Source of the DNA: Syntrophales bacterium
GTDB lineage: Bacteria; Desulfobacterota; Syntrophia; Syntrophales; JACQWR01
NCBI GenBank assembly: GCA_049302035.1
Contig: JBAQLR010000126.1
Span: 1 to 62,330, forward strand
DNA: 62,330 nt
Direction: 5' to 3'
The notes below the pieces were generated by a model, which did not search any database, was not told the DNA's origin, and worked only from the letters and a program-made list of their open reading frames with translations. Made by a program: the position numbers and the translations under genes. Below, one piece after another: positions 629 through 15,594 of this stretch (its first letter is position 1; every line of letters starts with the position of its first letter).

Positions 629-644
629 AGCAATTGACGTGCCA
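629..644 (-). promoter_or_regulatory. sigma-54 (RpoN) promoter upstream of fliK
   Basis: The reverse complement reads TGGCACGTCAATTGCT. GG and GC are separated by exactly 10 nt, a near-perfect match to TGGCAC-N5-TTGCW. It lies 20 nt upstream of the first ATG. Confidence 0.7.
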
Positions 645-732
645 CAGACAATTAAATGACGAAACCCATTGATATCGGTTATTTATAAATGCTGTGCGTA
701 GAGGGAAGGAAGAAAAGGGGAAATGTTTTCCT

Positions 733-770: not shown

Positions 771-876
771 TAAGTTAGAGATTAGTTTTTACGTTTTTCT
801 GGCAAAAAACAAGTTCGTTAACGAACTTATACCCCTCAAGGGGGGACTGAAGCAAGTCCCGTCGAGGTACGGGCCG
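771..876 (+). repeat. copy A of a conserved two-hairpin intergenic element (TAAGTTAG - hairpin - GTTAACGAACTTAT - ACCCC/GGGG hairpin - ACTGAAGCAAGTC)
   Basis: Positions 816-862 are 42/47 identical to 13128-13174 (copy B). The TAAGTTAG box at 771-778 is shared with B. See findings. Confidence 0.6.
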
Positions 877-6552: not shown

Positions 6553-6623
6553 ATTTATCGCCCGGCCATTGACCGATCAGATGTTGCCATGATGAACAGG
6601 ATTAGTAGGTTCTAACCTACTAA

Positions 6624-6935
6624 CTATACTTGGATTCTCATTACTTCTTGATAAGCGTCCATGATTTTATTCCTTACCTGCATCATCGCCCGGAAAGAAA
6701 TATCCGCCTTCTCCAGGGCAACCACCGCCTCATGGATGTTGGTCGTTTTGCCCAGTTGGACCTCGGCAATTTTTTCATCGGCGTTGACCTGCAACTTGTT
6801 TATGTCGGCCATAACATCCTTCAGCATGTCAGAGAAGGTTGTCCCTTCATTCTGTCCCGCAGAAACAAGGGCAGACTTCGGAATGTTCAAAGACGGCGGC
6901 AATAAATCTCCGCCACCGATCAACAGATCACTCAT
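6624..6935 (-). CDS. fliE: flagellar hook-basal body complex protein FliE
   Basis: 103 aa with the C-terminal ..VRNKIMDAYQEVMRIQV signature. Confidence 0.9.
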   Translation of the reverse strand: MSDLLIGGGDLLPPSLNIPKSALVSAGQNEGTTFSDMLKDVMADINKLQVNADEKIAEVQLGKTTNIHEAVVALEKADISFRAMMQVRNKIMDAYQEVMRIQV

Positions 6936-9275: not shown

Positions 9276-10517
9276 CTAAACTGGCTGGGCGCCAAGCTCA
9301 TCCTTCTTTTCCCAAAGAGGCAGCAGAACGGTAAAAACCGTGCCGGCCGTGCGGCCTCGCTCCACGTGGATGGCCCCCTTATGCATATCCAGAATGTTAT
9401 GGACAATGGCCAACCCCAGTCCGGACGTCCCTTCGCGGGTGCTGAAAAAGGGATCAAATATTTTGGGCAGGTTTTCCTCTGAGATGCCGACACCATTGTC
9501 GGCAAAGATGATCTCCAGAAAAGGCGTAACACTCGCCCGGGGCTGGTCGAAGGACGTGATTTTTGTTGAAACATAAAGACATCCTCCCTCCGGCATGGCC
9601 TGTAAGGCATTTAAAGCGAGATTTAAAAACACCTGTTTCAGCATTTCCTCATCCCCCGAAACTAAAACATCTTTCTCCACCGGGCTAAAAGCAAGAGATA
9701 CATCTCCCTGCTTGGCCAAGGGCTCACTAAAAGACAGGGTCTCCTTCAGAAGGGTGTGAACATTGACGCATTCCGAACGTGGAATGTTGGTTTTCGTAAA
9801 TAAGAGGAGGTTTGATATCTTGTTGTCCATATTTTTCACGGAAGTCAGGATCTTGGCAACCCGCTCCCGATCCCGTTCCTCGGGCATTTCCTTCATCAGC
9901 ACAGAAGCGAAGAGTTCTATGCTGCCCAGGGGATTCCTTATTTCATGGGCGATATTTACCGCCATTTCCCCCATGGAGGCGAACTTCTCCGTCCTTTTGG
10001 CCATATCTTCCAGTTTTTCAATCCGCGAAATATCCCGCATGATGAAAACAGTCCCGATAGTTTGCCCGCTCCGGGCGCTAACAGGGGAACCAAATATTTC
10101 CAGAGTGCGTCCCTGCAATTTAACCTTATGACCTGCCTCGCCCTGGAAGTACTCGGAAAAGAATACGTTCTGCCACATGGCAGGGGTAATATCCTCAAAG
10201 AGCAGGCTGATATGTTTACCCTTGACCTCCTTTTCCGTTACTGCGGTAAATACGCCGGCGCAGCGATTGACAGTCTCGATATTGCCCGCCAGATCCGTTA
10301 CAATTACGCCGTTAGTCAGGCTTTCCAGGATGTTCTGGAGATAATTTTTCATGTCTTCCTTGGCAGCGATAGTCGCTTCCAGTTCCAGGTTTTTAATTTC
10401 CAGCTCACGGTTGATGCTCGCAAATTTCAGCTCCAGATCAGCATAGGCCTGCTGTAGAGACGAGGTGGCCTTATTGAAATTAGCGAACGACTGCTGCAAA
10501 ACCTCTAAATCATTCAT
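9276..10517 (-). CDS. PAS sensor histidine kinase (FlrB/FleS-like)
   Basis: PAS domain, H-box AHEIRNPLGSI, and an HATPase region with DNGVGI and GTSGLGLAIV. I set the start at the ATG at 10515-10517 (MNDLEVLQ..), which overlaps the upstream gene's stop by 8 nt. Confidence 0.85.
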   Translation of the reverse strand: MNDLEVLQQSFANFNKATSSLQQAYADLELKFASINRELEIKNLELEATIAAKEDMKNYLQNILESLTNGVIVTDLAGNIETVNRCAGVFTAVTEKEVKGKHISLLFEDITPAMWQNVFFSEYFQGEAGHKVKLQGRTLEIFGSPVSARSGQTIGTVFIMRDISRIEKLEDMAKRTEKFASMGEMAVNIAHEIRNPLGSIELFASVLMKEMPEERDRERVAKILTSVKNMDNKISNLLLFTKTNIPRSECVNVHTLLKETLSFSEPLAKQGDVSLAFSPVEKDVLVSGDEEMLKQVFLNLALNALQAMPEGGCLYVSTKITSFDQPRASVTPFLEIIFADNGVGISEENLPKIFDPFFSTREGTSGLGLAIVHNILDMHKGAIHVERGRTAGTVFTVLLPLWEKKDELGAQPV

Positions 10518-12867
10518 TTTGGTAACCAGCTTTCCCTGCCAAACGGTTCTCCTCGAGGAAATAATCCGTAACTTTGGGCCAAAATTCTCCGACGGCATTG
10601 GCCTTTACCTGGGTAAAACTTTTCTCCGCCTCGGTAAAATCTTTACGATGGAGCAAACCCTTCCCTATCATGCAGGTCAGCCAGTTGCGCACCTCGCTAT
10701 CCCCTTCCCCTGCCTGAGCAAGGGCTTGACGGTAGGCCCCGATCCCTTCCCGGTACTTCTTTAAGTCATAATAGGCATTGCCGAGACCACCGTATATCTC
10801 TAACAAAATATCAGCCGGATAACTTTTCGGGTACTGCTCATAATCCTTCAATGCCTTAAGATAATTGATAATTGCTCTATCGGACAACTTTGCCGCCCGC
10901 AAAGAACGGCCGTAGTTCCTGTACACGACGCCCTGCTTTTCCCCACGCACAAGCAGGACCTCCGCATAGAGAGAATTGGCCTTAGCCAAGAGACTATTTT
11001 TGTAATAGAGGTCAGCTAAGGCAGTTTTGATATCGTTGCGCAGCGTCCGATCCTTGATACCCCCAACCGTCAGCAAGGCTGATAATTTCTCTTCGGCAGC
11101 GGCGTCCCGGTTTTTCCCCAAGTCGATTTTTGCCAGCGCCAGGGTGATTGCCTTTGTCTGCTCACGGTCGGAACAATTCTTTTGCATGGGCCTGTAGACT
11201 TCTGCCGCGTCATCGTAAAGGCCGATCGACAGCAGGCTCTTACCAATCCTTGCCGCCGTGGCAAAATCATCCGAGGGGATGAAGCCCTTGGCATAGCTCT
11301 GAAAATAGATATCGGCCACCGCCAGGTAATCACCCTTCACATAGCTGGCCTCAACCAGTGACGGAGCTTGCAATTTCATTTTTTTACGCCCTTCCTCGCT
11401 GCTTCTCCCCCGGGGAAAACGGCTTAACAGGGATTGATAAGCGGCAAAGCCCTCTTTTATCCGGTTATCCTTCACCAGGGCGTTTCCCTTTAACAACAGG
11501 ATCGCGGCCTCCTTTTCCCCGCCTGGGGTTTTGGCCAGCAGACTATCGAAGAGTTTAAGCGGCGACTGGTAAGCATCGATGGGGAGCACCTGGAAGGGAT
11601 ATTTTATCTCCGGCTTCGCGACGCCAAGAGCGGCCATAGCCAATAAGCACGTTTCCGCCTCACTATCCGTGGGATATCGATCGCTGAATATACTGTACAA
11701 CCTCAAGGCCATTGCCGTTTCACCCATCGCCGCAGCATTGCGGGCCATCATGTAAAGGGAGCTCTTGCCGAATTCAGCGGCGGGATATATGTTATAGCAC
11801 AGGGCGAAGATCTGTAAGGATAAGCTGAATTTCCCGGCAGTAAAATAATGATTGCCCATATTAATAATGGTTTTGACCGGAATGTCGTGAAAATCCGGCC
11901 ATTTCTTCCGCGCCTCATCGTACCGCTGGCCGGCAAATTCCTCTTTGTGCAGCAGATAGTAACAATCGCCAAGCATAAAATCAGCTGTTTTGGCATATTC
12001 CCCGGCGGGATATTTTTTCAGGTAGGTAAGCAGCCTTTCCGTAGCTCGGTTGTATTTACCCATTTGATTTAATACAGCACCCAACTTGAACATCGCCTCT
12101 GCTAAATAGTCAGAATCGGGATAGGTGCTTATCAAGCGATCCCAGACGCCAGCCGACTCATAAAGAAAACTCAATTTTTCATTGCTTTTGGCCAAATGGT
12201 AATATACCAATTCATTGCCTGCGGCAGGGTCCGGGTAACTGATCAGAATCCCTTTGTATTGATCCACTGCCGTCAGCAATAACTTTGCATCGCCCTTCAG
12301 GCCCCGGAAATAGTGACAATCCGCCGCCATCCGGAGCGCCTGCTCTTTTAGCGCTTCAGGCAAAGAGGGTTGGTTGAGAATGACTCGCAGCATTGCCGCC
12401 GCCTGGTCGTATCGCTGCGCCTTAAATTCTTTCCGGGCGCCATCTAAAACCGATCCCCCCTCCTGCCTGGACGGTGGATCAGTTTTCTTCTGCTCCGTAG
12501 CCGGGGTCACGGAATTTACCTGAATTACGGCCTTGGCAACGGGCAAGATCATCCTCCGGATACGGAAAGTGGAAATCAATTTGCCAACTTTTAAGTCAGC
12601 GGCGACTTGCCGGGCAACTTCCTTCTTGTCATATCTGCCTATATAAATGTGGTACCATTTCCCTTTGCGCGGGATATCCACCCGCTCATAAACTGCTTCG
12701 TATCCTCTGTCCTGCAAAGATTTAATGTGCCGCTCAACCGCCTCGATCCTCTGGTAGGATGCGCCCTGGATGGTGTAATAAGGCACACTCCCGGCGGCGC
12801 CGCCGGTCAGAAAGAGCCAGATAAAAAAAACAAAAAAAAGTATGGGAAACGCTCTGTTCCTGTCCAT
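10510..12867 (-). CDS. exported SPOR-domain / multi-TPR protein
   Basis: N-terminal hydrophobic signal or anchor (FPILFFVFFIWLFLTGGAAG). SPOR-like beta-alpha-beta-beta repeat (YTIQGASYQRIEAVERHIKSLQDRGYEAVYERV..GKWYHIYIGRYDKKEVARQVAADL). This is followed by about 600 aa of TPR-like A/Y/L repeats. Confidence 0.75.
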   Translation of the reverse strand: MDRNRAFPILFFVFFIWLFLTGGAAGSVPYYTIQGASYQRIEAVERHIKSLQDRGYEAVYERVDIPRKGKWYHIYIGRYDKKEVARQVAADLKVGKLISTFRIRRMILPVAKAVIQVNSVTPATEQKKTDPPSRQEGGSVLDGARKEFKAQRYDQAAAMLRVILNQPSLPEALKEQALRMAADCHYFRGLKGDAKLLLTAVDQYKGILISYPDPAAGNELVYYHLAKSNEKLSFLYESAGVWDRLISTYPDSDYLAEAMFKLGAVLNQMGKYNRATERLLTYLKKYPAGEYAKTADFMLGDCYYLLHKEEFAGQRYDEARKKWPDFHDIPVKTIINMGNHYFTAGKFSLSLQIFALCYNIYPAAEFGKSSLYMMARNAAAMGETAMALRLYSIFSDRYPTDSEAETCLLAMAALGVAKPEIKYPFQVLPIDAYQSPLKLFDSLLAKTPGGEKEAAILLLKGNALVKDNRIKEGFAAYQSLLSRFPRGRSSEEGRKKMKLQAPSLVEASYVKGDYLAVADIYFQSYAKGFIPSDDFATAARIGKSLLSIGLYDDAAEVYRPMQKNCSDREQTKAITLALAKIDLGKNRDAAAEEKLSALLTVGGIKDRTLRNDIKTALADLYYKNSLLAKANSLYAEVLLVRGEKQGVVYRNYGRSLRAAKLSDRAIINYLKALKDYEQYPKSYPADILLEIYGGLGNAYYDLKKYREGIGAYRQALAQAGEGDSEVRNWLTCMIGKGLLHRKDFTEAEKSFTQVKANAVGEFWPKVTDYFLEENRLAGKAGYQNE

Positions 12868-12920
12868 TTAATTTAGCCAAGCCCATCTCATCTGTCACTG
12901 TACAAGACGGCACCTGGTTA

Positions 12921-12936
12921 CGCAAGGAACATACCA
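12921..12936 (-). promoter_or_regulatory. sigma-54 promoter of the SPOR-TPR / kinase / regulator operon
   Basis: The reverse complement reads TGGTATGTTCCTTGCG, with GG-N10-GC spacing and the same TGGTATGT..CTTGC flavour as the flgB promoter. It lies about 54 nt upstream of the ATG at 12867. Confidence 0.6.
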
Positions 12937-13092
12937 CTTGTTGAATTACCCGGATAGGAGCCGTCGTTTCTGGCCCCAAAAGAAACAAACGACGGCCCGG
13001 CGCCTCATCCTGTCAATGTAATCGCAAATTCGCCATTTTTTTGACGATGCGTTCATAAATGCGGAGATTTTCCCGCCATGGACAGCCTTCAG

Positions 13093-13175
13093 TAAGTTAG
13101 AAGTTGCTTTCCGGTGGGAAGCAGCTTCGTCAACGCACTTATACCCCTCAAGGGGGTACTGAAGAAAGTCTCGTT
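13093..13175 (+). repeat. copy B of the conserved two-hairpin intergenic element
   Basis: TAAGTTAG at 13093-13100. Hairpin 1 at 13100-13128, linker GTCAACGCACTTAT at 13129-13142, hairpin 2 ACCCC/GGGGT at 13143-13157. It is 41/52 identical to copy C and 42/47 identical to copy A. Confidence 0.65.
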
Positions 13176-13230
13176 CATCGGTGCGACGTCGCTAGAAGAT
13201 CTTGCCCCGGTTGAAAAGCTCAGACACCCA

Positions 13231-13246
13231 TGGCATGCAAACTGCA
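13231..13246 (+). promoter_or_regulatory. sigma-54 promoter of pilZ-motA-motB
   Basis: TGGCATGCAAACTGCA with GG-N10-GC spacing, 58 nt upstream of the pilZ ATG. Confidence 0.65.
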
Positions 13247-13303
13247 TCCAGCGCACTCATAATAAAGACATGCTGTGTACCGCCATTTGAAGGAGCAGAT
13301 TTT

Positions 13304-13843
13304 ATGGCCAATATTAGTGAATCTGATTGCCGGAACAAGCGGGAATTTTCTCGTGTGGGCGTCCACCTGCCCCTGGAAATTCGCCGCGTTACCCCGGAAC
13401 AACAGCGGCTGATCAGCAGCCACCTGGAAGAAAAAATATTAACCGGCGCCAAGCTGCCTCAGGATGTAGCGGACCCCTTGCTTGCAGAATGGCTGAAACT
13501 CCTGCATGGCCAGTTGAACACGATATTGGGCCTGCTGGCGACAAATCGACCCGCCAGCGAGCTGCCACCCTTCAGGACGGAAACCGTCAGCGGAGGAGGA
13601 TTAAGCTTTACCTCCCCGGAGGAGTACGATCTCGGCGACCTGTTGGAATTAAGAGTAATCTTCGACTCTTCCCTGTCCGGCACCCTCTGTTTATACGGGG
13701 AGGTGGTGCAAAAAGAAAAAAGCGAGGAGGGTTACCTAAGCGCGGTCAGCTTTTTAGCCATTGATGAAAGTCTTCGGGACGAAATAATAAAATTCGTTTT
13801 TGAAAAAGAGCGTGAGCTCCTGCGGCAGATGAGGAGGGAATAG
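13304..13843 (+). CDS. PilZ-domain (c-di-GMP receptor-type) protein
   Basis: RxxxR-like NKREFSRV followed by ..TVSGGGLSF.. (the D/NxSxxG motif). The start is set at the ATG at 13304 with a GAAGGAG RBS. The ORF-track TTG start at 13202 lies upstream of the promoter. Confidence 0.7.
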   Translation: MANISESDCRNKREFSRVGVHLPLEIRRVTPEQQRLISSHLEEKILTGAKLPQDVADPLLAEWLKLLHGQLNTILGLLATNRPASELPPFRTETVSGGGLSFTSPEEYDLGDLLELRVIFDSSLSGTLCLYGEVVQKEKSEEGYLSAVSFLAIDESLRDEIIKFVFEKERELLRQMRRE

Positions 13844-13850
13844 CTGGCGC

Positions 13851-14708
13851 ATGCTGGTAATAATCGGATTTGTCATTGTAAGCGCTTCTGTTGTCGGGGG
13901 CTACCTTCTCGAACATGGGAATCTTTCCCTCCTTTTACAACCTGTCGAACTGTTGATCATTGGCGGAGCCGCACTCGGCGCTTTCGTTGTTGCGGCCCCC
14001 ATAAGGATCATGAAGGCAACCGTCAGCGCCGCCTCCCGCATGTTCACTAACAAACCATACGGCAAGGCAGAGTATGTAGAGGCGCTGATGTTGCTGAACG
14101 GCATATTCTACAAAATCCGCCAGCAGGGCCTGGTCGCCATAGAATCCGATATCGACAGCCCGGAAGAAAGCAGCCTGTTTAATCAATATCCGGTCATCCT
14201 GAAGAACCACCACGCTTTAACTTTTATAACCGACACCTTAAGAACAGTCATGACGACAACGATAGCGCCCCATGAACTGGAGGCCCTGCTCGACAGTGAG
14301 CTGGAATGCCATCATGAAGAAGCGCTGCTCCCCTCGCAGACACTTAGCTTTATCGCAGATTCGCTTCCCGGCCTGGGTATCGTTGCCGCCGTGCTGGGAA
14401 TTGTCCTCACCATGGGAAAGATCAACGAACCGCCGGCCGTGCTGGGCCAAAGCGTGGGGGCGGCCCTGGTGGGAACATTTCTCGGCATTCTTCTGAGTTA
14501 CGGTTATGTGGGTCCCATGGCAAGAAACATGGCGCAAATAGCAATGGAAGATATGCAATATCTCAGTGTCATCAAGGTGGCCCTGTTATCCTTCGTCGGT
14601 AACGGCGCTGCCCCCAAAGTGGCGCTTGAATTTGGCCGCCGCGTCATACCGTCCGATGTCAAGCCTTCTTTCATGGAAGTGGAAGAAAGCTTGCGGCAAA
14701 AGAAATAA
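13851..14708 (+). CDS. motA: flagellar stator protein MotA
   Basis: 285 aa, MotA/TolQ/ExbB family, 4 TM segments, directly upstream of motB. Confidence 0.9.
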   Translation: MLVIIGFVIVSASVVGGYLLEHGNLSLLLQPVELLIIGGAALGAFVVAAPIRIMKATVSAASRMFTNKPYGKAEYVEALMLLNGIFYKIRQQGLVAIESDIDSPEESSLFNQYPVILKNHHALTFITDTLRTVMTTTIAPHELEALLDSELECHHEEALLPSQTLSFIADSLPGLGIVAAVLGIVLTMGKINEPPAVLGQSVGAALVGTFLGILLSYGYVGPMARNMAQIAMEDMQYLSVIKVALLSFVGNGAAPKVALEFGRRVIPSDVKPSFMEVEESLRQKK

Positions 14709-14725
14709 TGTCCACTTATTTTTAG

Positions 14726-14795
14726 TAAGTCAGTAATTGTTTTTCGGTGGGCAACAATTACGTTAACGCACTTATCCCGTTTACGTTTATCGGGA
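14726..14795 (+). repeat. copy C of the conserved two-hairpin element (motA-motB intercistronic)
   Basis: TAAGTCAG at 14726-14733. Hairpin 1 GTAATTGTT/AACAATTAC at 14733-14761, linker GTTAACGCACTTAT at 14762-14775, hairpin 2 TCCCG/CGGGA at 14775-14795. Confidence 0.6.
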
Positions 14796-14808
14796 TTGAG
14801 GCTCCGGC

Positions 14809-15594
14809 ATGGAAGAACGACAGCGGCCAATCATTATAAAAAAGAAGAAGAAAAAACACGATGCGGCCCATGGTGGGGCCTGGAAAGTAGCCTATGCAGA
14901 CTTTGTCACCGCCATGATGGCCTTTTTCCTGGTCATGTGGCTCCTGGCGATGGTGGCGCCCCAGAAGAAGGCGGCAATGTCGGAGTACTTTAAAAACTAC
15001 AGCCTGTTCAAGGAATCGGGCCGGTCTTTTATGGAGGGGACCGCACAGGTGCTGCGTCAGCCCGACCAGGGATTCAGGAAATCCGCCCAGGATACCACCA
15101 AAGGCAGCGGCGCCGGGCAATTGACGTCCGATGATCTGGCAAACAAGCTAAGAGCTGCCATCGAGGATAAGTTAAAGTCCGTCAAAGATCAGGTCTTGGT
15201 GGACATTATGGAGGGCGGGGTACGGGTGCAGATCATCGATAGCGACGGCAGCATGATGTTTCCCCTCGGCAGTGCGGAACCAACGCCCAAAGCGAAAGAA
15301 ATATTGCGACTGGTGACGGAAAACATTGCCAACATCGAGAATCGCATCGCCATTGAGGGCCATACCGATGCGGCGCCCTTTAAAGGCGCTCAGATCACCA
15401 ACTGGGAACTTTCCACAGCCCGGGCTTCGGCCGCCCGGCGGGAGCTGGAAAATAACGGCATCCCCCCCGGCCATATAGCCCGTGTCGTGGGATATGCGGA
15501 TCAGGAATTATTTGTTCCCGCCAATCCTCGCGATCCGCGGAACCGCCGCATCAGCATCATCATCATCCAGGAAAAACCGGCCAAACCCCTCTGA
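14809..15594 (+). CDS. motB: flagellar stator protein MotB (OmpA-like peptidoglycan-binding C-terminus)
   Basis: N-terminal TM segment with the conserved Asp (YADFVTAMMAFF). OmpA-like ..IEGHTDAAPF..NWELSTARASAARRELE..NRRISI. Confidence 0.9.
   Translation: MEERQRPIIIKKKKKKHDAAHGGAWKVAYADFVTAMMAFFLVMWLLAMVAPQKKAAMSEYFKNYSLFKESGRSFMEGTAQVLRQPDQGFRKSAQDTTKGSGAGQLTSDDLANKLRAAIEDKLKSVKDQVLVDIMEGGVRVQIIDSDGSMMFPLGSAEPTPKAKEILRLVTENIANIENRIAIEGHTDAAPFKGAQITNWELSTARASAARRELENNGIPPGHIARVVGYADQELFVPANPRDPRNRRISIIIIQEKPAKPL

Follow-up and report, generated by a model that had tools for sequence, protein, structure and literature searches.

Repetitive extragenic palindromic (REP) elements of Escherichia coli have been reported to stabilise mRNA, to affect its processing, or to stall ribosomes when a hairpin abuts the stop codon, and the attC sites of integrons carry two boxes, R'' (RYYYAAC) and R' (GTTRRRY). 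Here we describe an element that shares features with both, found in a 62,330-nt contig of a Syntrophales bacterium (JBAQLR010000126.1, positions 1 to 62,330, the whole of which we call the window). Three copies, A (763-876), B (13090-13184) and C (14724-14797), lie on the + strand, and box searches found them where an earlier note on this sequence had placed them. Our preferred reading, to which we give a probability of roughly 0.7, is that they belong to an undescribed, structure-defined interspersed intergenic repeat of the REP kind or of the MITE (miniature inverted-repeat transposable element) kind, and that copies B and C are recent, strain-specific and tolerated insertions.

A family of intergenic repeats with a covarying fold

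Each species of bacteria and archaea was represented by a single genome in our scan with the pattern TAAGTYAG-N20-50-GTYAACGMACTTAT, and at least 119 loci matched, compared to a chance yield of ∼17 loci by our own estimate (596 Gb, both strands, uniform base composition). We aligned 122 copies of the element, and the loci share the family consensus TTAG-TAAGTTAG-(variable hairpin 1)-CGTTAACGCACTTAT-(CCYG-TTTAT-CRGG)-YTAGG. Sequence beyond the search pattern is also conserved, and thus the matches are homologous rather than coincidental. TTAG stands directly to the left of the core in 105 of the 122 copies, hairpin 1 shares an A/T-rich consensus (AAATTATTTTCTGCG...GCAGAAAATAATTT), and hairpin 2 (CCYG-TTTAT-CRGG) abuts ACTTAT. 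The element is about 75-95 nt in length and its box-to-box spacing ranges from 47 to 72 nt; in a long form the outer ends of the boxes are ∼60 nt apart, whereas the short form, to which copies B and C belong, has ∼50 nt at this point and a hairpin 1 of TTGCTTTC-YGGT-GAAAGCAA. There is typically one copy per 8-kb locus.

Nearly all of the matches listed come from metagenome-assembled genomes (MAGs) labelled Geobacter, Geobacteraceae, Desulfuromonadaceae, Pelobacter, Syntrophaceae, Smithella or ‘Deltaproteobacteria’, and the range of the family is Desulfobacterota (Geobacterales, Desulfuromonadales and Syntrophales), with boxes common to Desulfuromonadia and Syntrophia. No match was found in 2.9 million viral contigs or in the plasmids of PLSDB. 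Seven copies come from a MAG labelled ‘Dongiaceae’ (DATNCC01), on contigs of 50-57% GC, and copies were also seen in MAGs labelled Pedobacter and Micrarchaeota. The ‘Dongiaceae’ MAG may be mis-binned, and the copies under these three labels are either on mis-binned Desulfobacterota contigs or the result of horizontal spread. A single Methylobacter match looks like chance.

The family is previously undescribed in Rfam or in the searchable literature. At gathering score, Rfam 15 reported nothing on the element in the window or in eight loci with canonical copies, and at permissive E-values it reported noise matches only (12-19 bits, compared to cut-offs of 40-114). A literature search with the exact sequence returned no description of the element, the boxes are absent from the supplements of genome papers on Geobacter and Pelobacter in which ‘multicopy nucleotide sequences’ are listed, and searches of the literature on MITEs and on REP doublets forming hairpins (REPINs) and their RAYT enzymes returned no Geobacter or Syntrophus element of this type.

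The element folds into an outer stem of 5-6 bp (TAAGT/ACTTA), an asymmetric internal loop in which TAG lies opposite CGTTAACGC, a hairpin 1 that is long, A/T-rich and variable in sequence provided that pairing holds, and a small abutting hairpin 2. This structure is under constraint. Among the 122 aligned copies, standard pairs fill 93% of the cells, compared to 42-52% after a shift of the 3' partners by 1-3 columns, and two-sided changes are found in 17 of 25 pairs (202 cells, compared to 55.5 cells in shuffles; none of 500 shuffles reached the observed values). Covariation is seen in 13 of the 15 pairs of hairpin 1 (in one such pair, A-U 56, G-C 43 and U-A 9) and in all four pairs of hairpin 2 (for example, U-A 52, C-G 44 and A-U 9). 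Because the search pattern had already specified the outer stem, that stem is uninformative on this point. The earlier note had inferred compensatory stem changes from the window alone; indeed, the differences between copies B and C in hairpin 1 preserve pairing, and the alignment of 122 copies strongly reinforces the covariation. We also compared G.U with A.C pairs on the + strand, where the ratio is 49:20 in sense copies and 29:17 in antisense copies. The excess of G.U on the + strand in both orientations indicates that the fold belongs to the element's own strand and not to the strand that the host transcribes.

The units of this fold are also found in tandem and in mosaic forms. At least nine loci have head-to-tail tandem copies, five loci have two or three repeats of the hairpin 2 module CTTATCCC-N-GGGG, and copies that consist of the 3' half exist as well as tandem hairpin 2 modules. 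In copies A and B the canonical hairpin 2 has been swapped for a lineage-specific module, ACCCCTCAAGGGGGTACTGAAG, which lies in the segment that these two copies share at 42 of 47 positions and which is found elsewhere only in near-identical strains and in locus L142, where it is nested in the loop of hairpin 1. L142, from an 86% relative, has two adjacent copies (1205-1380) upstream of its pilZ-motA locus, one with the ACCCCTCAAGGGGGTACTGAA module inside the hairpin 1 loop and the other with mutated boxes and two hairpin 2 modules. In addition, a larger composite repeat, ATTGAAGCTCCCCGCAACAAGTTGCGGGGAATCTCCGACTGTTTAG-(core)-...CGCTCGCTAACCCCGCCGCAAGCAGCGGGGAATGCGCTCGCTGTTCAATTCAA, with TTGAA/TTCAA ends and two G/C hairpins, was seen at twelve loci in Syntrophales MAGs; it reaches ∼45 nt upstream and 110 nt downstream of the core, and the sequences outside it are unrelated between loci.

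Gain, loss and genomic setting of the copies

The element has been gained or lost at individual sites between closely related strains. We searched metagenome contigs encoding MotA relatives with the covariance model and, among the relatives examined, copies B and C are shared only with L125, which is from a 99% identical strain. In L126, L132 and L135 (95-97% MotA identity), the motA-motB spacer lacks copy C and reads TAATGCTCACTTATTTTT|GAGGCTCCGG (junction CACTTATTTTT|GAGGCTCCGG), and in the window the same spacer flanks enclose 14724-14797. Copy C lengthens this spacer from 27 to ∼100 nt and leaves the motB Shine-Dalgarno sequence GAGG intact. Copy C is also absent in L127; L128 and L130 have the 3' half only (AACGCACTTATCCCGTTTATCGGG), and L137 has a relic. 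Such half copies and relics indicate that site C has been occupied repeatedly or that the element decays in place.

A similar result was obtained at site B, based on L126, the one element-free relative with 95-97% MotA identity in which the region upstream of pilZ was sampled. In L126 (95% MotA identity), the segment 13090-13184 is missing as a clean alignment gap between ...ACAGCATT and GACGCC..., and both sigma-54 promoters are retained, as is a conserved upstream block (CCTGTCAATGTAATCGCAAAT-CGCCATTTTTTTGACG), despite the lack of copy B. Copy B thus adds ∼95 bp between this block and the pilZ promoter. With respect to target duplication at the junctions, at most TT is repeated at site C and nothing at site B. 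YTAG is found on the right side in 46 of the 122 copies, compared to 105 for TTAG on the left, and the empty site C has no pre-existing TTAG. Presence and absence at homologous sites in close relatives, as seen here, is a feature of mobile repeats.

Copies are found in short spacers within and between operons, in either orientation, and in tandem or mosaic arrays, and they have no functional link to their neighbour genes. Among the matches listed, 150 neighbour proteins match 159 Pfam families, none of them more than twice; examples are TGT, a queuosine synthase, acyl-CoA dehydrogenases, ABC and Liv permeases, GatC and pyruvate-ferredoxin oxidoreductase. Clustering of 820 open reading frames (ORFs) from 8-kb stretches around the 119 listed loci returned only generically abundant families (two-component, TPR) and the orthologous tgt-yajC-secD-secF operon. 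There was no recurrent transposase or integrase among these 820 ORFs, and genes for TnpA or TnpB were absent from the surroundings of all 119 loci. Based on a crude ORF heuristic, 53 copies are sense, 31 are antisense, 8 lie between divergent genes and 4 between convergent genes. Five of the antisense loci are backed by Pfam matches on the flanking genes (e.g. livH/livM-type permeases, a formyltransferase with an epimerase, and thyX with DUF1385), and the spacers that hold copies are very short in either orientation. The earlier note had allowed for a REP/MITE-like repeat that prefers motility regions: the generic repeat is what we find, and the diversity of neighbours speaks against the preference. 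Indeed, the scatter of dozens of copies with no motility link, which that note had named as evidence against a regulatory role, is what the scan returned, with at least 119 loci beside unrelated housekeeping genes.

Sense copies have a characteristic placement relative to the flanking ORFs. The upstream ORF stops at a TAG right before TAAGTTAG in 26 of the 53 sense copies, and a second in-frame stop is used in 4; the next start codon clusters 19-38 nt past ACTTAT; and, among all 122 copies, 49 have a Shine-Dalgarno-like sequence at most 18 nt past hairpin 2.

Some sites are occupied in more than one species. Several species have the element in the secD-secF spacer, where the TAG within its TTAG serves as the secD stop codon and secF begins 27-32 nt past ACTTAT; one of these copies has an extra insertion in hairpin 1. 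In two Geobacter-type genomes (L020, 656-875, and L050, 2627-2850), the element follows a thiamine pyrophosphate (TPP) riboswitch and the T-run of the riboswitch terminator, and precedes a thiS-like gene with its Shine-Dalgarno sequence and start. At the orthologous secD-secF and riboswitch-thiS sites, the flanks are well over 90% identical and the interior of hairpin 1 is almost wholly different, with pairing kept. This divergence could result from compensatory evolution in place, or from replacement of the whole by another copy.

The copies in the window and the features around them

The sequence TAAGTYAG is found at 771, 13093 and 14726, once before each copy, and the 14-nt linker GTYAACGMACTTAT has three + strand matches in the window (817, 13129 and 14762). 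A fourth match to the linker, with one mismatch, lies on the - strand (809-822) and overlaps the palindrome of copy A; 0.62 matches are expected by chance, and four were reached in none of 100 shuffles. The identities reported in the earlier note, 41/52 between copies B and C and 42/47 between A and B, were exact on recount. Hairpin 2 is ACCCC/GGGGT in copies A and B and CCCG/CGGG in copy C. The presence of three copies within 15 kb of the 62-kb window is weakly non-random (p roughly 0.01-0.06, by our own estimate).

Copy B was delimited as a full inserted segment (13090-13184, +) by alignment with the element-free allele of L126, and it scores 65.7 bits with covariance model R1, the seed alignment of which includes it. 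Its 5' box, TAAGTTAG (13093-13100, +), provides the TAAGT that pairs with ACTTA of the 3' box to form the outer stem, P1. Hairpin 1 (13100-13128, +) has 13 bp (G13100-C13128), including two G.U pairs, and the loop GGT. The 3' box, GTCAACGCACTTAT (13129-13142, +), is equivalent in the family to the internal-loop strand CGTTAACGC followed by the 3' strand of P1, and a lineage-specific 3' module (13143-13184, +), consisting of the hairpin ACCCCTCAAGGGGGT and ACTGAAGAAAGTCTCG, takes the place of the canonical hairpin 2. The copy lies between the SPOR-TPR gene (10510-12867, -) and pilZ (13304-13843, +), upstream of the sigma-54 promoters of both, which are TGGTATGTTCCTTGC (12922-12936, -) and TGGCATGCAAACTGCA (13231-13246, +), respectively. 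Neither a sigma-70-like promoter nor an intrinsic terminator was found within 12880-13320, in or around copy B.

Copy C (14724-14797, +) is a 74-nt insert, in the mRNA sense, in the spacer between motA (13851-14708) and motB (14809-15594), and scores 59.9 bits, also as a member of the seed. Its parts, all on the + strand, are TAAGTCAG (14726-14733), hairpin 1 (14733-14761, G14733-C14761), the 3' box (14762-14775) and hairpin 2, CCCG...CGGG (14776-14794). The loop of this hairpin 2 has an internal 6-nt duplication, CCCG-TTTAC-GTTTAT-CGGG, relative to the family consensus CCCG-TTTAT-CGGG. Copy A (763-876, +; 66.6 bits, seed member) has its 5' box TAAGTTAG at 771-778 (+), found in the box search, and its 3' box at 817-830 (+), followed by a type-II hairpin (831-845) and an extension; its hairpin 1 is degenerate. 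Since both genes that flank copy A are on the - strand, this copy is antisense to both.

We also ran the covariance model built from the family alignment over the whole window with filters off, which returned the three seed copies and one further candidate, D (6575-6631, -), at an E-value of only 0.33, and this assignment is tentative. Candidate D lies in the sense orientation in the fliE-fliF spacer, starts at the fliE TAG stop (6626-6624) and reads TAG|TTAGTAGGTTAG...ACTAATCCTGTTCATCATGG; hairpin 1 and the CGTTAACGC box have been lost. Judged by its sequence, it is probably a decayed fourth copy.

Other features were noted near the copies. The block CCTGTCAATGTAATCGCAAATTCGCCATTTTTTTGACG (13009-13046), with the inverted repeat TGTCAA...TTGACG inside it, is found in every one of the five aligned relatives, with or without copy B. 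It is a better candidate than copy B for the site at which an activator would act upstream of the two divergent sigma-54 promoters. Between this block and the SPOR-TPR promoter, just upstream of the latter, there is an inverted repeat of 10 perfectly matched bp, GCCGTCGTTT...AAACGACGGC (12960-12996); in relatives the site has a hairpin of other sequence (e.g. CTTCCC...GGGAAG in L127), pointing to conservation of a structure or of a dyad site. One of the two genes that flank copy A is a - strand ORF truncated by the left edge of the window; it has the initial sequence MRVGGMTMTAAGEG... and a start near 610, is possibly a hook-length (FliK-like) protein, and is preceded by a near-consensus sigma-54 promoter, TGGCACGTCAATTGCT (- strand, ∼631-646). 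A terminator-like hairpin, GGCACTT...AAGTGCC, is found at 743-762.

Origin of the element and its closest analogues

If the element is an interspersed repeat, it would spread or persist as a non-autonomous element, and an enzyme encoded elsewhere may act in trans by recognising the folded single + strand through the invariant boxes, by analogy with the dependence of REP sequences on RAYT or with the structure-specific recognition of attC. Copies B and C would then be recent insertions that the flagellar genes tolerate, and a putative effect on expression, such as mRNA stabilisation, processing, or ribosome stalling at the stop-abutting hairpin as described for E. coli REPs, would be a by-product.

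Several observations weigh against this reading. No mobilising enzyme was found in the 8-kb stretches around the listed copies, and neither terminal inverted repeats nor a consistent target-site duplication was found among the 122 copies or at sites B and C. The boxes are essentially invariant across bacterial classes, and few diverged copies are found beside exact ones. Identity in hairpin 1 is 0.68 within genomes and 0.65 between genomes; since the former does not exceed the latter, recent bursts from a genome-specific master copy do not fit. The occupancy of the secD-secF and TPP riboswitch-thiS sites across species, with compensatory differences, points to long-term constraint and could mean a function for the host. 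Finally, because relics exist, the ‘empty’ sites could be deletions rather than sites that were never occupied.

The boxes common to several classes, the lack of greater likeness within than between genomes and the compensatory changes at orthologous sites leave room for a conserved trans-acting factor or for a function of the element itself. It is conceivable, and in our judgement unlikely, that the element is the substrate or product of an unrecognised system common to Geobacterales and Syntrophales and conserved across classes. Such a system would explain why the boxes are identical across classes, the missing genome-specific master and the compensatory evolution at orthologous sites. The element could in that case be single-stranded DNA that folds into a site on which a structure-specific recombinase or a HUH enzyme acts, and so be a new counterpart to attC or REP. 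Alternatively, it could be a functional RNA in its own right, such as a small motif that cleaves itself or recruits a protein, with the invariant junction nucleotides (UAG / CGUUAACGC / UUUAU) and the covarying stems as its active core.

The reading that the window itself first invites is that the element serves the flanking sigma-54 promoters as an enhancer or architectural module to which a bacterial enhancer-binding protein or IHF binds, as the earlier note had proposed for motility genes. Copy B does lie upstream of both promoters at the distances given there (pilZ, 56-138 nt; SPOR-TPR, ∼157-254 nt), copy A lies ∼125-245 nt upstream of the sigma-54-like promoter at 631-646 (- strand), and CGTTAACG is a perfect 8-nt palindrome. 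However, the homologous pilZ-motAB loci of close relatives (L126, L132 and L135) lack the element, and L126, which keeps both promoters and the conserved block at 13009-13046 with copy B wholly absent, directly refutes the enhancer hypothesis. Moreover, copy C lies within an operon with no sigma-54 promoter following it, most family members likewise have no sigma-54 context, the family is spread across unrelated genes in both orientations, and the spacing of the boxes varies. We consider an enhancer role very improbable; the scattered loci and the element-free relatives leave both it and any motility-specific reading without support, and of the interpretations in the earlier note only that of a generic repeat stands. 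A tempting regulatory annotation is thereby removed, in that the pilZ-motAB and SPOR-TPR sigma-54 promoters would not depend on the element. A domesticated cis-acting module of the mRNA, in which the hairpins of sense copies stabilise the upstream cistron, give an RNase site, or tune termination or re-initiation and are kept by selection, is a more substantial rival that we nevertheless regard as doubtful. It would fit the abutting TAG stops (26 of 53 sense copies, compared to 4 at a second stop), the clustered downstream starts, the mild sense excess (53:31), the Shine-Dalgarno-like sequences past hairpin 2, the equal identity of hairpin 1 within and between genomes, and the cross-species occupancy of the secD-secF and riboswitch-thiS sites with compensatory changes in hairpin 1. 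It does not fit the one-third or so of copies that are antisense inside real operons, the position of copy B upstream of both promoters and the antisense position of copy A, or the G.U bias that the element's own strand has even in antisense copies; in addition, close relatives manage without copies B and C, and the neighbour genes have no common function.

The strand-specific bias of the fold is instead what would be expected of a folded single-strand recombination site of the attC kind, or of an end-only derivative of an IS200/IS605-type (HUH) element, with boxes that are read on one strand by a recombinase or transposase. The combination of variable stems with invariant boxes, the lack of inverted terminal repeats and of a consistent target duplication, the TTAG conserved on the left only, the copies that often begin right at a stop codon and the head-to-tail tandems all agree with such a site. 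Nevertheless, the attC boxes are absent, copies stand singly between housekeeping genes rather than in cassette arrays, no integrase or Y1 transposase recurs near the 119 listed loci, the two hairpins are mutually unlike, which contrasts with the left and right ends of IS200/IS605 elements, and the empty site C had no prior TTAG. This origin therefore seems to us improbable, and an interspersed repeat remains the reading that we prefer.

The family provides a new consensus, a 122-copy alignment and a covariance model in metal-reducing and syntrophic bacteria of environmental importance. For a bacterial repeat, it is unusual in combining invariant single-stranded boxes with covarying stems, a consensus that is the same across classes, both orientations and frequent placement exactly at a TAG stop, and this combination makes the family a tractable lead to a mobilising or binding factor. 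The natural filled and empty alleles are suited to testing the effects of the insert on operon expression.

We compared the element with a number of known classes of sites. A riboswitch-like cis-regulatory element does not fit the mixed orientation of the copies (53 sense, 31 antisense) or their functionally unrelated neighbours. The element departs from REP or REPIN sequences in that its copies are not grouped as near-identical sequences around a genome-specific master (identity of hairpin 1, 0.68 within and 0.65 between genomes), and from MITEs in its missing terminal inverted repeats, since the ends, TTAGTAAGTTAG... and ...CRGGGYTAG, are not inverse complements and the sole inverted repeat (TAAGT/ACTTA) is internal. 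By eye and relative to the literature consensus, attC does not match either, as the outer pairing is TAAGT/ACTTA and GTTAACG and GTTAGAA form no complementary R''/R' pair; attC cassette arrays next to intI were rejected because one copy per 8-kb locus is usual and the neighbours are housekeeping genes. The earlier note had excluded a sigma-28 promoter and we agree, judging by eye from the variable spacing of the boxes (47-72 nt) and a putative -10 that is not conserved. Sites for CsrA, HutP and IHF were also rejected by eye, as GGA, UAG-repeat and WATCARNNNNTTR patterns, respectively, are not consistently present.

Each of the closest analogues, REP sequences and bacterial interspersed mosaic elements (BIMEs), attC, MITEs and IS200/IS605 elements, fails in at least one defining feature. 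The element resembles integron attC sites in keeping its structure as the stem varies, in having boxes at the hairpin's foot and in its strand-specific folding, and its copies often stand directly behind a stop codon with the next start close downstream; unlike attC, it has no RYYYAAC/GTTRRRY boxes, no cassette arrays and no intI nearby, and its neighbours are core housekeeping or flagellar genes. Palindrome-associated transposable elements (PATEs) derived from IS200/IS605 have no inverted repeats or duplication, and neither terminal inverted repeats nor a consistent duplication was found for the element; both have subterminal hairpins, a left-only tetranucleotide (here TTAG) and strand asymmetry, but the two hairpins of the element differ in sequence and size, there is no TnpA or TnpB near the 119 listed loci, and the empty site C has no TTAG. 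MITEs (Chunjie, Correia, ERIC) and the pneumococcal BOX are also non-coding and A/T-rich with a stable fold, their insertion is survived by operons, and their copies vary in size, with truncations; the core with one to three hairpin 2 modules is modular in a manner similar to boxA-B(n)-C. Terminal inverted repeats and consistent direct-repeat target duplications, as in MITEs, were not found in the element. In particular, Chunjie of Geobacter uraniireducens is described as having a length of 178-235 bp, 21-bp inverted repeats and 9-bp duplications (PMC3184786; see also PMC10969869), and does not fit the element.

REP and BIME sequences of Enterobacteria and Pseudomonas have conserved, G/C-rich stems, whereas the element is a Y-shaped two-hairpin unit in which the single-stranded boxes are conserved and the stem is A/T-rich and variable. 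Its copy number appears to be much lower (3-4 in the 62 kb of the window and usually one per 8-kb locus elsewhere), its consensus is common across classes rather than tuned to a genus, and no link to RAYT was seen, with no search aimed at RAYT having been made. The likenesses are nonetheless extensive: both are short hairpin repeats in operon spacers and at 3' ends in both orientations, both form clusters or mosaics with other motifs, and both vary in presence between strains and persist at some orthologous sites. The dependence on a factor encoded elsewhere that has been reported for REP sequences may also extend to the element.

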